Origin: a phage
Sequence record: PV636258.1
DNA length: 64,000 bases
Direction: 5' to 3' (one strand)
Positions 2,243-51,951 of this stretch are shown here, piece after piece; positions within the stretch are counted from its first letter, which is position 1; each line of letters opens with the position of its first letter. Both the position numbers and the translations under genes were made by a program. Under the pieces are notes generated by a model. The model saw only the letters and a program-made list of their open reading frames with translations, did not search any database and was not told where the DNA came from.

Positions 2243-5239
2243 ATGACTGTTTTCTATACGAACGTTGCCCGACAGGGTAACGACCTTCTGATTCGTATTG
2301 CAGACGACAACGGCAATCGCCGTATGTTGCGTAAGAAATTCGAACCCACCTTGTATTTACCCACAGCCGATTATTCCAAAGTTGAAAAGATTGGCCTCCT
2401 CAATGAACCGTTGGTGTCTAAAAAATTTGCGTCAATGCGTGACGCCGACAACTATCTGGAGGAATATAAGGAGGTCGAAGGCGCTGCCGTTTACGGACAA
2501 ACGGATTATGCATATCAATTCATAGCGCATAGTTTTCCTGGGATGATTACCCCCGATTACTCAAATATTCACATCGCCAACGTGGATATCGAAGTTTTCT
2601 CGGCTGGGTGGCGCGATGGAGAAATGACTAAAGGCCCATTTCCTCACGCGACGATTGAATCCCACACGTTTAAGGGGAGTGAGGCGCGTGTTCGCCGATT
2701 CCATAAGCAAGTGTTGGCCAACCATGATTTCGTTCGAGAGCATTTCCCAGGTTCCTTTATTTCCAACAACGTGACTGACCAGTTCCCTATCATTGATAGT
2801 AATGGTAAGATCACACAGAACATGAATGCCGCCTTCCCTATTACGCTCATCCAGCTTCAAGACATGAACACCAACAAGTTCTATGTCTGGGGTATGCCGT
2901 GTTCTAAGGATCGCCATAAATTCAAATATGATCCAAATGATGAAGAGATAGGTGGTCTTGAGGTTGAATACAAAGAATACACGACTGAACAAGAACTTCT
3001 TCGCGCCTTCTTAGATTATTGGTCTGAACGTCAATTTGATGGTTGGACTGGCTGGAACATCGAAACGTTTGATAGCCCGTACTTGGTTGAACGTATTACG
3101 CAGGTTCTCGGCGAAACCCAGGCAGAGCGCCTCAGTCCTTGGGGCAAACTCAAGAAACGTTTCATCAAAGACCGTAAAGGCGACGTGACTTCTTATCAAT
3201 TCGTGGGTTGTCCTATGATGGACTACATGCAAGTTTACAAGAAACACACGTACACAACCCGCGAAAAATACTCACTGGATTGGATCGCTTATTGTGAACT
3301 CGGTGAGAAGAAGTTGGATTATAGTGAAAGCAAGTCATTGTATGATCTATATTTTAATGATTATTGCAAACACACCCGATATGGTATCAAAGACGTCAAA
3401 CTCGTGTGGCGTTTAGAACAAAAGCTGCGTTTGATACAGCTGATGTTCGTATTGGCGTATCGCACCAAATCTAACTATGAAGACGGTCTTGGGACTGTAG
3501 CACCATGGCTGGCGATGTGTTACTATCGTCTTTATGAAAAGGGGATTGTCCCTAAAATACAGCGTGTATATGATGGTCCAACAGACTTTGAAGGCGCATA
3601 TGTCATGGAGGTTGCACCAGGGATATATTTCTGGGTATTCTCTGAGGACTTAAACTCCCTGTATCCCCACATCATACAGCAATACAACCTTGGTCCTGAG
3701 ACTATCGTTTCTGACAAGCACACACGTCGCGATATCATTGAGTCCATGTGTGAAGAATTGACCAAAGCGATGAATGATATGACAACGCCTATGAACAAGC
3801 GCCGTCATCTCAAAAATCTTCACGACAAGCTGCAGCGTGCTATTGATGAACGCATACAAGTTGTTGATGAATTGGTCGCGCTGGGTGAATTCCATTTTGA
3901 AACATTACGTCGATATAACGTTTCGTTTACCCCGAACGTTCAATTCTTCAGTAATGAGAAGATGTCTTTCCTTTCCGAAATTATGCGAGGCATATACGCT
4001 GACCGTAAAGGAGAGAAAGCAACTGGCCTGAAGTATGAGCAATGGGCTGGTTGGTGTAAGGAAATGTCTAAAGGTGATTTCCACCTTGAATCCGCCATGA
4101 AGTCTCGTTTCTACGATCCTGAATGGTATGAAGAACACAAGCATATCGACCTTGATCACCTGACTGAAGTCATGCATAAGTGGGAAGATTTGGGAGTTGC
4201 CCAAGATACGTTACAACAAGGTCTGAAGATCTTGATGAACGCAGGATATGGTGCAATTTCTAACGTCTGGTTTAAAGAATACTTCAACATCAACATCGCT
4301 GAAGCAATTACCACTTCCGGCCAGCTGATCAATAAATGGAACAAACGCCACACTGATGATTATCTGAACAAACTTTGTGGCACCACTGGTCAGGATTTTG
4401 TTATCGCAGGTGATACAGACTCCAATTATATTTGCATTGAACGCCTGGTCAAGCAATTGTGGCCTGAAGAAAAGGACCATCACAAACTCGTTGATAACAT
4501 TGACCAATGGATCAAAGAGAATTACCAGCCAAAAACCAGTGAATGGGCGCAGTTGTTGTGTAATACCATGAACGGGTTTGAGCAGCGCATGGTCTGGGAA
4601 CGTGAGGTCATCGCATCGTCTGCTGTATGGCGAGCCAAGAAGATGTATTGCATGGCAGTATACGATAGCGAAGGCATCAAGTATGAGAAGCCAAAGATCA
4701 AATTCAAAGGTTTGGAAGCGCGTAAATCAACCACTCCTGAGTGGTGTCGTGAGCGTCTGGTTAAATGTTATGAGAAAGTCCTGCTCGGTACTGAGGCAGA
4801 GGTTCAGGAATTAATCGCTGGATACAAAAAGGAATATATGGAACTCACCGTGGATGATATCGCTCAGGCATCTGGTGTGAGCGATATTGAGAAGTGGTTA
4901 GACGCGAACGGGAATTACATCAGCGGTACGCACTTTGCTGCCAAGGCTTGTATTATGTACAACAAGCTGATCGATAAGCACGAAGATCTCGGTCTTCCCC
5001 CTATCGAATCTGGCGATAAGGTTAAAATCATCAACCTGAAACCTGGCAATCCTGTGGGGAATGATCGCATAGCCTTCCCTGACTTCCTTCCTCCAGAATT
5101 GGGATTGGATAAATGGGTGGATTACCACACCACGTTTGAAAAGACCTTTATAGAGCCAATTCAGTCTATCTTGGATGTGGTTGGTTGGTCTCATAAACGT
5201 CGAGTTAATCTGTTGTCCATGATGGGCAAGAAAGGTTGA
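2243..5239 (+). CDS. 43: DNA polymerase, family B (T4 gp43-like)
   Basis: ORF 2084-5239 trimmed to ATG 2243 (GGAG 7 nt upstream); exonuclease and polymerase motifs incl. YPHIIQQYNLGPETIV (motif A region), NAGYGAIS (KxxxNSxYG-like), IAGDTDSNYI (motif C YGDTDS). Confidence 0.93.
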   Translation: MTVFYTNVARQGNDLLIRIADDNGNRRMLRKKFEPTLYLPTADYSKVEKIGLLNEPLVSKKFASMRDADNYLEEYKEVEGAAVYGQTDYAYQFIAHSFPGMITPDYSNIHIANVDIEVFSAGWRDGEMTKGPFPHATIESHTFKGSEARVRRFHKQVLANHDFVREHFPGSFISNNVTDQFPIIDSNGKITQNMNAAFPITLIQLQDMNTNKFYVWGMPCSKDRHKFKYDPNDEEIGGLEVEYKEYTTEQELLRAFLDYWSERQFDGWTGWNIETFDSPYLVERITQVLGETQAERLSPWGKLKKRFIKDRKGDVTSYQFVGCPMMDYMQVYKKHTYTTREKYSLDWIAYCELGEKKLDYSESKSLYDLYFNDYCKHTRYGIKDVKLVWRLEQKLRLIQLMFVLAYRTKSNYEDGLGTVAPWLAMCYYRLYEKGIVPKIQRVYDGPTDFEGAYVMEVAPGIYFWVFSEDLNSLYPHIIQQYNLGPETIVSDKHTRRDIIESMCEELTKAMNDMTTPMNKRRHLKNLHDKLQRAIDERIQVVDELVALGEFHFETLRRYNVSFTPNVQFFSNEKMSFLSEIMRGIYADRKGEKATGLKYEQWAGWCKEMSKGDFHLESAMKSRFYDPEWYEEHKHIDLDHLTEVMHKWEDLGVAQDTLQQGLKILMNAGYGAISNVWFKEYFNINIAEAITTSGQLINKWNKRHTDDYLNKLCGTTGQDFVIAGDTDSNYICIERLVKQLWPEEKDHHKLVDNIDQWIKENYQPKTSEWAQLLCNTMNGFEQRMVWEREVIASSAVWRAKKMYCMAVYDSEGIKYEKPKIKFKGLEARKSTTPEWCRERLVKCYEKVLLGTEAEVQELIAGYKKEYMELTVDDIAQASGVSDIEKWLDANGNYISGTHFAAKACIMYNKLIDKHEDLGLPPIESGDKVKIINLKPGNPVGNDRIAFPDFLPPELGLDKWVDYHTTFEKTFIEPIQSILDVVGWSHKRRVNLLSMMGKKG

Positions 5240-5275
5240 TTCAATAAACCAAAGGGGGATATAATTCCCCCTGTT
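5236..5275 (+). promoter_or_regulatory. intergenic hairpin (GGGGGA-TATAAT-TCCCCC) preceded by TTCAATAAA; terminator and/or sigma70-like promoter (TTGATT-18-TATAAT)
   Basis: Directly after polymerase stop; GC stem 5254-5271 with TATAAT in loop; TTGATT at 5236-5241 lies 18 nt upstream of the TATAAT. Confidence 0.45.
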
Positions 5276-5299
5276 ATCCCTTTGACAACAGGTATTGTT

Positions 5300-5644
5300 A
5301 TGAAACTCAATAAGATTCTTCTGGTGTGTGCTCTGGCTTTCTCTACCACTGCATGCTCTACCCTTCTGGACGTTGCGTCTACTGTTGACCTCGATGCGCC
5401 GACGTTCACCAATCAGCAAGCGGTGAATAAGATGGAAGACACCATCAAGGCACATGCTGCGTTGGATAACACCACTCCTGGTCCGTTGCAAACTGTTTGC
5501 AATTATGACGATTCCATCCAGGAAGATGAAACCTATCACTGTACCACTTACGTGAAGGAATCTTCTGTGGTTCTGTATGCAGATTGCACAGAAGAGCAAT
5601 GCACCGCAACTGGTTATGATCAAGTGGAGAAGTCTGATGAATAA
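5300..5644 (+). CDS. small secreted/lipoprotein-like protein
   Basis: ATG at 5300; N-terminal signal-peptide-like MKLNKILLVCALAFSTTAC; several Cys in mature part. Confidence 0.45.
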   Translation: MKLNKILLVCALAFSTTACSTLLDVASTVDLDAPTFTNQQAVNKMEDTIKAHAALDNTTPGPLQTVCNYDDSIQEDETYHCTTYVKESSVVLYADCTEEQCTATGYDQVEKSDE

Positions 5645-51778: not shown

Positions 51779-51845
51779 AATAAAAACCCTTTTGTGTAGT
51801 AACCTTCTTTGGCAGTCTAATGTTCAACTGTGCGTCTGGAACATT

Positions 51846-51874
51846 AATATACTGCCTTTTTAGAAGATGTAAAC
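51846..51874 (-). promoter_or_regulatory. candidate early promoter GTTTAC-17nt-TATATT with upstream TTTTCAATAAAAAG
   Basis: Minus-strand -35 GTTTAC (plus 51869-51874), 17-nt spacer, -10 TATATT (plus 51846-51851), about 70 nt upstream of gene start 51778. Confidence 0.4.
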
Positions 51875-51951
51875 CACTTTTTATTGAAAAGTTGGTTAAC
51901 ACTTCTGTGTTAGACAACGGAACGCTGGAACAGCGCGGACTGACGTGAATA

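Follow-up and report, generated by a model that had tools for sequence, protein, structure and literature searches.

Intergenic elements in the Kuttervirus window

The 64-kb stretch of PV636258.1 analyzed here, called the window below, is a segment of a Kuttervirus genome (ViI-like, family Ackermannviridae) and is 98.5% identical to Salmonella phage PM10. The intergenic DNA of this window carries a repeated element, in which a 9-bp box of consensus TTCAATAAA (core TTCAAT) is followed after a spacer of 9–13 nt (mode 11) by a hexamer of the sigma-70 -10 type. Eleven window sites have this one layout, and in nine of them the G-rich spacer pairs with C-rich sequence 3' of the hexamer, so that the hexamer comes to lie at the apex of a GC hairpin. 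Intergenic regions were listed and oriented by transcription direction after the annotation of 99 matching genes had been carried over from PM10, the closest full genome. Gaps in the PM10 annotation at window positions 6417–6734, 10507–10748, 13704–13872, and 33521–33730 look protein-coding by conservation between genera and by their open reading frames (ORFs; e.g., a 113-amino acid ORF at 6394–6735), and were therefore not treated as regulatory intergenic DNA. Orthologous intergenic regions were taken from Shigella phage Ag3, Klebsiella phage 0507-KN2-1, Dickeya phage Ds25CZ/LIMEstone1, Serratia phage phiMAM1, Erwinia phage Bue1, and IMG/VR contigs.

The repeated element is real and strongly non-random. 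TTCAATAAA matches the window 12 times, compared with 1.41 matches expected, and the pattern TTCAATAA-N12-TATWAT has four exact matches (5240, 9646, 12631, and, on the minus strand, 40378) against 0.11 expected, or five with one mismatch. Exact TTCAATAA is present in 21 copies in the window; 11 of the 21 lie in the small noncoding fraction, nine of these 11 co-oriented with the genes. An unbiased k-mer count on PM10 ranked TTCAATAA first in enrichment among AT-rich intergenic 8-mers (23 sense and six antisense copies), with 29 of its 45 genomic copies confined to the ~8.5% of the genome that is intergenic. The full pattern of box, spacer, and -10 hexamer matches PM10 34 times versus 11 in random genomes, and ~16 of the 34 are intergenic and co-oriented and hence candidate promoters. 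A preliminary description of this DNA had pointed to such a recurrent intergenic motif and named six sites. The enrichment bears this out, and all six sites have the layout described, with a variant box at 27147 and an inverted box at 32219; to these are added five further members, all on the minus strand (40378–40403, 41860–41908, 44559–44596, 53025–53064, and 55897–55920). A simple sigma-70 consensus scan does not discriminate here, as its promoter-like hits are about as numerous as those in shuffled sequence (39 vs 37, 43 vs 40, and 55 vs 40 shuffled), and an Rfam scan of the whole window at gathering thresholds matched no family.

The box typically starts 0–2 nt past the stop codon of the upstream gene, which it adjoins at 5240, 44596, 53064, and 55920, and the Shine-Dalgarno sequence and ATG of the next gene follow 15–45 nt further on. 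The commonest hexamer is TATAAT, with TATTAT, TATACT, GATAAT, and TATGAT as variants. We collected 82 distinct instances with a search that allowed one mismatch in the -10 hexamer and required A2 and T6; the spacer is 11 nt in 38 of these and 12 nt in 24. The apex of the hairpin lies 0 to +1 nt from the center of the hexamer (sites 5240, 9646, 12631, 44569, and 50777), and the window hairpins have folding energies of -12.7 to -27 kcal/mol (z -1.9 to -7.7 against dinucleotide shuffles). A -10-like hexamer in sense orientation occupies the loop of 14 of 100 intergenic hairpins in PM10, as against 14 of 555 coding-sequence hairpins, and a single PM10 intergenic hairpin has such a hexamer in antisense orientation only. 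About half of the cassettes have a T-tract after the hairpin, as in intrinsic terminators: this is the case at 9652–9695, 12641–12674, and 50765–50793, and weakly so at 32229–32251. The hairpins at 5253–5272, 27163–27180, 41860–41896, 44559–44584, and 53025–53059 have none.

Individual cassettes

The cassettes and promoters that we term class A are found on both strands. On the plus strand, the cassette at 5240–5272 lies 3' of the DNA polymerase gene. Its box TTCAATAAA (5240–5248) comes directly after the TGA stop codon, and after an 11-nt spacer TATAAT (5260–5265) forms the loop of hairpin 5253–5272 (AGGGGGA/TCCCCCT), which is followed by no clear T-tract. The cassette at 9646–9695 (plus) has its box at 9646–9654, an 11-nt spacer, and TATTAT (9666–9671) at the apex of a 16-bp hairpin (9652–9687, z -7.7) that leads into the T-tract TTTCTTTTT; its Ag3 orthologue is listed as terminator Torf248. 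At 12631–12674 (plus), the box (12631–12639), 11-nt spacer, and TATTAT (12651–12656) recur, with the hexamer at the apex of hairpin 12641–12668 (z -4.9, with two G·U pairs in the window phage) and a T-tract thereafter. The similarity that had been noted between these last two copies holds at 37 of 48 aligned positions, which is short of the near-identity that had been claimed.

Two further class A cassettes are on the minus strand. The one at 44559–44596 is 3' of the gp41 primase-helicase gene and upstream of gp128/gp129, and consists of box TTCAATAAT (44588–44596), a 13-nt spacer, and TATAAT (44569–44574) as the exact loop of a 10-bp hairpin (44559–44584). The one at 50765–50803, upstream of gp002 and thymidylate-synthase-like genes, has box TTCAATAGA (50795–50803), a 12-nt spacer, and TGcTATAAT (-10 hexamer at 50777–50782) at the apex of hairpin 50765–50793 (z -6.7), again followed by a T-tract. 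In Ag3 this one element is listed twice, as promoter Porf067 and as terminator Torf069. At 40378–40423 (minus), upstream of the genes for gp136, gp137, and the gp59 helicase loader, a class A promoter occurs without a nested hairpin: a tetraloop terminator (40404–40423) is followed by box TTCAATAAA (40395–40403), an 11-nt spacer, and TATAAT (40378–40383), and the fold has an energy of 0 kcal/mol. The module of box and -10 hexamer can thus exist apart from the hairpin.

Variant cassettes retain the layout with a changed box. At 27147–27180 (plus), the box-like CTCTATTGA (27147–27155) overlaps a stop codon, and after a 12-nt spacer TATAAT (27168–27173) is in the loop of hairpin 27163–27180 (GGCGG/CCGCC, z -3.2), with no T-tract (Ag3 orthologue listed as terminator Torf021). 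The box is inverted at 32219–32251 (plus), where TTATTGAAG (32219–32227) precedes an 11-nt spacer and TATACT (32239–32244) at the apex of hairpin 32229–32251 (z -3.6; Ag3 orthologue Torf031); the stem is GGGGAAG in the window phage versus GGAGAG in Klebsiella phage KN2-1. Upstream of the DNA ligase gene, at 41860–41908 (minus), box TTCTATTGA (41900–41908) is followed by a 12-nt spacer and TATAAT (41882–41887), the hexamer being located at the junction of 5' stem and loop of a 12-bp hairpin (41860–41896, z -3.1) whose 3' arm holds the GGAG Shine-Dalgarno sequence. The cassette at 53025–53064 (minus) has box TTCTAAAAG (TTCTATAAC in other genera) at 53056–53064, an 11-nt spacer, and GATAAT (53039–53044) in the loop region of hairpin 53025–53059 (z -6.0). 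A degenerate member at 55897–55920 (minus), upstream of the gp32 single-stranded DNA-binding protein gene, has CTCAATAGC (55912–55920), a 9-nt spacer, and TATAAT (55897–55902); its hairpin is lost in the window phage and kept in other genera (CGGGGTA-TAAT-TACCCCG), and its Ag3 orthologue is terminator Torf075. Two other hairpins were rejected as members for want of a box: 61558–61576, whose GATAAT loop is not conserved in other genera, and 26108–26126, whose TGAAAT loop varies freely between genera.

Conservation of the box and of an RNA hairpin

In six genera, compensatory substitutions have altered the stems, whereas the box, its spacing, and the -10 hexamer have been kept. Box positions 1–6 are conserved in 84–96% of instances, and A2 and T6 of the hexamer in every instance, both having been imposed by the search. 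At the locus 3' of the DNA polymerase gene, the hairpin arms of different genera are GGGGGA/TCCCCC, GGGGGC/GCCCCC, AGTGGGG/CCCCACT, and GTGAGGC/GCCTCAC; box, spacing, and -10 hexamer persist among these four stems over DNA-polymerase identities down to 62%. Ordinary orthologous hairpins behave in the opposite manner, with loops that vary between genera (e.g., 26108–26126). For eight deeply diverged copies of this locus, MAFFT/RNAalifold misaligned the non-homologous stems and under-counted covariation, and for diverged copies we therefore used direct listing together with a closer family alignment, that of the 44535 family (cassette 44559–44596, 11 distinct sequences). In this family 97% of alignment cells are paired, three pairs have changed on both sides, two G·U pairs are invariant, and the observed covariation score was reached by 0 of 500 shuffles.

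The hairpin also folds asymmetrically. The sense RNA is more stable than the antisense in 36 instances versus 11 (47 in total; p = 2e-5, with the reservation that p-values here are inflated because orthologous sequences are not independent), whereas coding-sequence hairpins have no sense bias (72 vs 89). Persistent G·U pairs indicate a hairpin at the RNA level, and together with the covariation and the sense-strand folding bias they identify it as a structure selected in the RNA of read-through transcripts, and not as a DNA cruciform.

The distant Vibrio phage D507 is essentially devoid of the box and uses canonical -35/TGn/-10 sites. At 13119–13170, D507 has TTGTAC-N17-TATAAT, whose TATAAT forms part of the loop of a hairpin with arms GTGGAG/CTCCAC, and it also encodes a 600-amino acid protein annotated as 'RNA polymerase sigma factor' (16311–18113). 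In phiMAM1, class A cassettes are found in addition before gp008 and before rIIA.

Two classes of promoter-like sites

The box/-10 sites lack a -35 element. At 19 paralogous sites, the best match to TTGACA at sigma-70-compatible spacing (16–18 bp) averages 2.5/6, which is the random value, and TGn occurs at one of the 19. A second class of sites in the same genome, (G/C)TTTAC-N16-18-TATAnT, has a -35 match of 4.1/6 and is represented in the window at 1291–1319, 43813–43842, 51846–51874, 63080–63109, and 63569–63597. Members of this class are often directly 3' of a terminator, whose T-tract supplies the TTT of the -35. The two classes precede different genes: those 3' of the box/-10 class are DNA ligase, gp32, clamp loader, nrdA, dCMP deaminase, and the thymidylate-synthase and gp59 operons, and those 3' of the TTTAC class are small and of unknown function. 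By its sequence, the TTTAC-N17-TATAnT class looks like ordinary early promoters.

Copies of the box are also associated with TTTAC promoters, both within the spacer and, as the palindrome TTTATT(G/C)AATAAA, just 5' of the -35. The preliminary description had correctly placed such copies beside the GTTTAC-N17-TATAYT candidates at 1291–1319 and 51846–51874, and twice at 43828–43852. In the early-type promoter at 1291–1332 (minus; GTTTAC-N17-TATACT at 1291–1319), TTCAATAA is in the spacer and the palindrome TTTATTGAATAAA (1320–1332) is just 5' of the -35. The early-type cassette at 43813–43878 (minus) has a terminator hairpin (43855–43878), then a box copy (43844–43852), and then CTTTAC-N18-TATCAT (43813–43842) with a second box copy (43828–43836) in the spacer. 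In the early-type promoter at 51846–51888 (minus), GTTTAC-N17-TATATT (51846–51874) has TTCAATAAA (51880–51888) just 5' of its -35; the Ag3 orthologue is Porf069.

Other candidate regulatory sequences

The early-promoter region and 5' leader at 1242–1336 (minus), 95 nt in length, are almost invariant between Kuttervirus, Agtrevirus, and Taipeivirus, whereas the flanking genes are merely 74–81% identical among these three genera; the near-invariance suggests either an extra constraint on the leader or a recent exchange between genera. Early-type genes (window 636–683, 1242–1336, 63030–63133, and 63521–63622, all minus, and throughout PM10) have a common translation-start context, GGAAnTACATCATG or GGACTATATCATG, and TACATCATG occurs in PM10 intergenic DNA seven times in sense and never in antisense orientation.

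Upstream of the gene for a histone-like protein, at 20868–20913 (plus), a tetraloop terminator is followed by an extended -10 promoter, TTTTCA-N16-TGTATAAT, which is kept in all five genera and corresponds to Porf009 of Ag3. The TTCATT at the position of the box may be a weak form of the latter.

Late-promoter-like sequences, (C)TAAATA or TATAAATA, are likewise nested in hairpins, in the window at 57530–57568 (minus) and 9424–9454 (plus) and in PM10 at 62094, 88900, 91139, 94746, 106724, 24016, and 29130. The 3' arm of these hairpins holds a Shine-Dalgarno sequence or ATG (e.g., CTAAATACCCATAAC...GTTATGGGTAT). As far as sequence can indicate, this seems to be the design of T4 genes e and soc, widely used in this phage. 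Lastly, five genera share a conserved 506-nt intergenic region (59416–59921) located upstream of the gene for the gp5 baseplate hub; it includes the block CCTCGCC(T)TTATGCCTCCATGGCATTGGAATGGG, matches no Rfam family, and might represent a non-coding RNA or a long structured leader.

Probable composite promoter and stem-loop cassettes

We consider it probable, at roughly 60%, that these elements combine promoter and stem-loop in a single composite cassette and correspond, in Ackermannviridae, to the PeSL and PmSL cassettes of T4-type phages. PeSLs of phages RB49 and phi1 have promoter and terminator activity in lacZ fusions, with the stem-loop located mostly between -35 and -10 or over the -10 (Arbiol et al. 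2010, PMC2839356). PmSLs are stem-loop cassettes on Mot-box middle promoters, and the PeSL promoter consensus of T4 and PST is TTTACW-N17-TAYWAT (Comeau et al. 2014, PMC4122927). The elements described here resemble both in being repeated intergenic composites that run, AT-rich, from the stop codon of the upstream gene to the Shine-Dalgarno sequence and start codon of the next, and in combining a sigma-70-type -10 with a stem-loop of G-run and C-run arms containing G·T pairs. This layout, with the stem-loop overlapping the -10, is found at the 11 window sites and ~16 PM10 sites. The pairing of a -35 with a -10 at ~17 bp is found in the TTTAC-N17 class alone, which coincides with the T4/PST consensus and of which 43813–43878 has the classic PeSL arrangement. 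Class A differs in having neither a -35 nor a Mot box and in having instead a new box, TTCAATAAA, 11 bp from the -10. It differs further in that the hairpin is centered on the -10 with a precision of 0–1 nt, and in that the cassettes occupy orthologous positions between conserved replication genes in six genera, whereas PeSLs and PmSLs are found mainly in hyperplastic regions. The family concerned is also another one, Ackermannviridae, and we found no such cassettes described for it. The suggestion in the preliminary description of a combined terminator and promoter is consistent with the anatomy, the conservation pattern, and the PeSL precedent. Its designation of the promoters as early is doubtful, given a -35 match no better than chance, the rarity of TGn, and the existence of a separate TTTAC class. 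Its alternative reading, as processing sites, is neither favored nor contradicted by the present observations.

The geometry of class A is that of T4 middle promoters, in which a MotA box is located 12±1 bp from an excellent -10 (Hinton 2010, PMC2988021). In both cases a 9-bp phage-specific box near -30 replaces the -35 (here with a spacer of 11 or 12 nt) in front of genes for replication and nucleotide metabolism. The box itself is unlike the MotA box, (a/t)(a/t)(a/t)TGCTTtA, TGn is rare here and present in about half of T4 middle promoters, and nested hairpins are not a described feature of the latter. Because an activator box at about -30 stands in place of the -35, the box/-10 sites are, on our analysis, most likely delayed-early or middle promoters that would need a hypothetical phage factor at the box.

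We infer promoter activity and its timing, termination, a trans-acting factor, and a function for the RNA hairpin from this organization, in the following way. At the level of DNA, the cassette would be a promoter without a -35, made up of the box TTCAATAAA, an 11-bp spacer (9–13), and a near-consensus sigma-70 -10. The only parts of such a promoter that are free in sequence, the spacer and the discriminator/start region, would encode the two arms of the hairpin; with the arms placed there, an RNA element would be superimposed on the promoter and would be centered on its -10 automatically. Transcripts reading through from upstream would carry the full hairpin and might be terminated or attenuated where a T-tract follows (9687, 12668, and 50765); elsewhere the hairpin might stabilize transcript ends or, at 41860–41896, mask the GGAG Shine-Dalgarno sequence. 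Transcripts from the nested promoter would start 6–9 nt past the hexamer, inside the 3' arm, and would escape the hairpin. The net effect would be to insulate downstream DNA-metabolism genes from upstream transcription and to give them a promoter of their own, all within ~40 nt.

A similar logic is known from T4 genes e, soc, 49, and I-TevI, whose promoters are nested in inhibitory hairpins (Uzan & Miller 2010, PMC3014915). There too the read-through transcript folds, whereas RNA initiated at the nested promoter has no 5' arm and avoids the hairpin, and the cassette at 41860–41908 is predicted to mask its Shine-Dalgarno sequence likewise. In T4, though, the nested promoters are gp55-dependent late ones (TATAAATA) and the ribosome-binding site is masked by the hairpin in every case, whereas most of the hairpins described here exclude the Shine-Dalgarno sequence and about half are terminator-like.

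Several observations weigh against the proposed cassettes. No MotA or AsiA has been reported in ViI-like phages (Kutter et al. 2011), and Pfam and PHROG scans of ten window proteins, a part of the proteome that includes products of the early-type units, found no MotA or AsiA domain, so the proposed factor is hypothetical. Published 5' or 3' transcript ends, or a transcriptome, were found for no Ackermannviridae phage. Since about half of the hairpins are without a T-tract, termination cannot be a role common to them all. At 50755–50810, base pairing is possible between the AATAAA half of the box and the T-tract further downstream, and part of the conservation of the box could therefore be at the RNA level. 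The start predicted for 12631–12674 leaves a leader of ~10 nt without a Shine-Dalgarno sequence. In addition, the box copies in the spacer and 5' of the -35 of TTTAC promoters are left uncovered by a model with a single activator at a fixed position, and the inflation of p-values noted above applies to the statistical support.

A candidate factor and a possible early-to-middle switch

One lead to a factor that binds the box is gp129 (43887–44189, minus), a 100-amino acid protein assigned to phrog_639 'transcriptional regulator' and encoded two genes downstream of the cassette at 44559–44596. Its homologues are confined to Ackermannviridae and a few Vibrio phages. The search for a binder (Pfam and PHROG with the ten proteins, a PDB sequence search with gp129, and a collection of its homologues) yielded only sub-threshold Pfam matches of gp129 to Phage_DsbA (E 0.015–0.09), which are insufficient to assign it. 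T4 DsbA binds A/T-rich sites with low affinity, and gp129 is a weak candidate for the box binder. The native phage DNA contains hypermodified thymidines. Host sites of the integration host factor (IHF) type, judged by eye, did not fit.

In a more far-reaching and, taken as a whole, speculative scheme, the enterobacterial Ackermannviridae would have their own switch from early to middle transcription, unrelated to MotA/AsiA. A phage protein would bind TTCAATAAA; bound at about -29 it would replace the -35 contact and activate the promoters of replication genes, and bound to copies in the spacer or 5' of the -35 it would shut off the TTTAC-N17 promoters. The nested hairpins would block read-through and so tie the downstream genes to the switch.

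Alternative explanations

The composite cassettes may instead be ordinary early promoters of host sigma-70 that overlap terminators, with no phage factor and with TTCAATAAA serving as a weak or shifted -35 or as an AT-rich upstream region, as in the PeSLs of RB49 and phi1. This account we regard as possible but doubtful. For Ag3, the early promoters in Table S2 of Anany et al. 2011 include the orthologues of 5240 and 50747, read as TTGAtt-N18-TATAAT and TTcAat-N15-TGcTATAAT, respectively, and the terminators there include those of 9627, 27156, 32210, 50747, and 55825, with no mention of their overlap, of a common box, or of the apex geometry. The -10 hexamers differ little from the consensus, position -14 is often G, the RB49 and phi1 PeSLs are early promoters, and MotA/AsiA are not known in ViI-like phages, all of which a promoter dependent on sigma-70 alone would accommodate. 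Yet the conserved TTCAAT is 14 bp (12–16) from the -10 and not 17±1, and with a random -35 match and almost no TGn, sigma-70 by itself would be expected to act weakly. Moreover, a distinct and well-formed TTTAC-N17 class is available in the same genome before different genes, and a -35 is usually less strictly conserved than the box is in these six genera.

The cassettes might in addition, and not instead, be recombination points that shuffle gene cassettes, as has been proposed for PeSLs; we think this unlikely. Excision mediated by PeSLs, with the formation of mini-circles, has been demonstrated in RB49 and phi1 (Arbiol et al. 2010, PMC2839356), and a six-gene block of the window is flanked by a direct repeat, formed by the copies at 9641 and 12627. 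In phiMAM1 (25841–29539, compared with window 8191–14163), the homologue of 9462–9620 follows the homologue of 11658–12194, on the far side of this block, and the change in gene order thus adjoins the 9627/12625 pair of cassettes. This is, however, one rearrangement, with breakpoints not mapped to the elements, and most cassettes occupy orthologous positions between conserved core genes in all genera.

It is very improbable that the elements are RNA hairpins only (terminators, 3'-end protectors, or sites for an RNase or protein) with loops and boxes that act at the RNA level or resemble promoter sequences by coincidence. Such hairpins would account for the terminator-like scores of several elements, the listing of several Ag3 orthologues as terminators, the RNA-type covariation and G·U pairs, and the pairing of AATAAA with the T-tract. 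They would not account for loop variants that are changes sigma-70 tolerates (in a search that allowed one mismatch only), for the 14 to 1 co-direction of loop -10 hexamers with the genes, for loops that stay fixed as the stems change, or for box and -10 without a hairpin at 40378–40403 and at several PM10 sites.

The virion RNA polymerase of phage N4 recognizes extruded DNA hairpins with 3-nt loops. A corresponding reading, in which the palindrome is extruded as a cruciform in supercoiled DNA and presents a single-stranded -10, would fit the short GC stem, the key bases in the loop exactly at the palindrome apex, and the usefulness of a melting aid to promoters without -35 or TGn, but is scarcely credible: the sense strand keeps G·T positions, which a cruciform would have as A·C mismatches in its other arm (the invariant G·U breaks DNA symmetry), folding is systematically more stable for the sense than for the antisense strand, some members have no hairpin, the loops are mostly 4–6 nt and hold a sigma-70 hexamer in place of the N4-type loop, and no virion RNA polymerase is annotated in PM10.

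Significance

The architecture itself is not new in kind, having precedents in PeSLs, PmSLs, and the nested promoters of T4. Novelty appears to lie in the class of sites that has the TTCAATAAA box and no -35, in the strictness of its geometry, and in its conserved occurrence at orthologous core-genome positions across the enterobacterial Ackermannviridae. The early and middle promoters of ViI-like phages have been reported explicitly as unidentified (Kutter et al. 2011), and neither a search of the phage literature for TTCAATAA nor one of recent Ackermannviridae papers for promoters, terminators, and transcripts found anything relevant. The present analysis provides a candidate promoter grammar for the family, with exact coordinates, composed of TTTAC-N17-TATAnT, hairpin-nested TTCAATAAA-N11-TATAAT, and late sites of the form (C)TAAATA. 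Typing, biocontrol, and reporter-phage engineering all make wide use of ViI-like phages. If the elements are plain sigma-70 promoters over terminators, they would simply be PeSLs as found in Ackermannviridae. Should the box-dependent class prove correct, it would imply a new activator or sigma-remodeling factor in a phage group without MotA/AsiA, and the 40-nt cassettes would be ready-made insulated expression parts for phage engineering.

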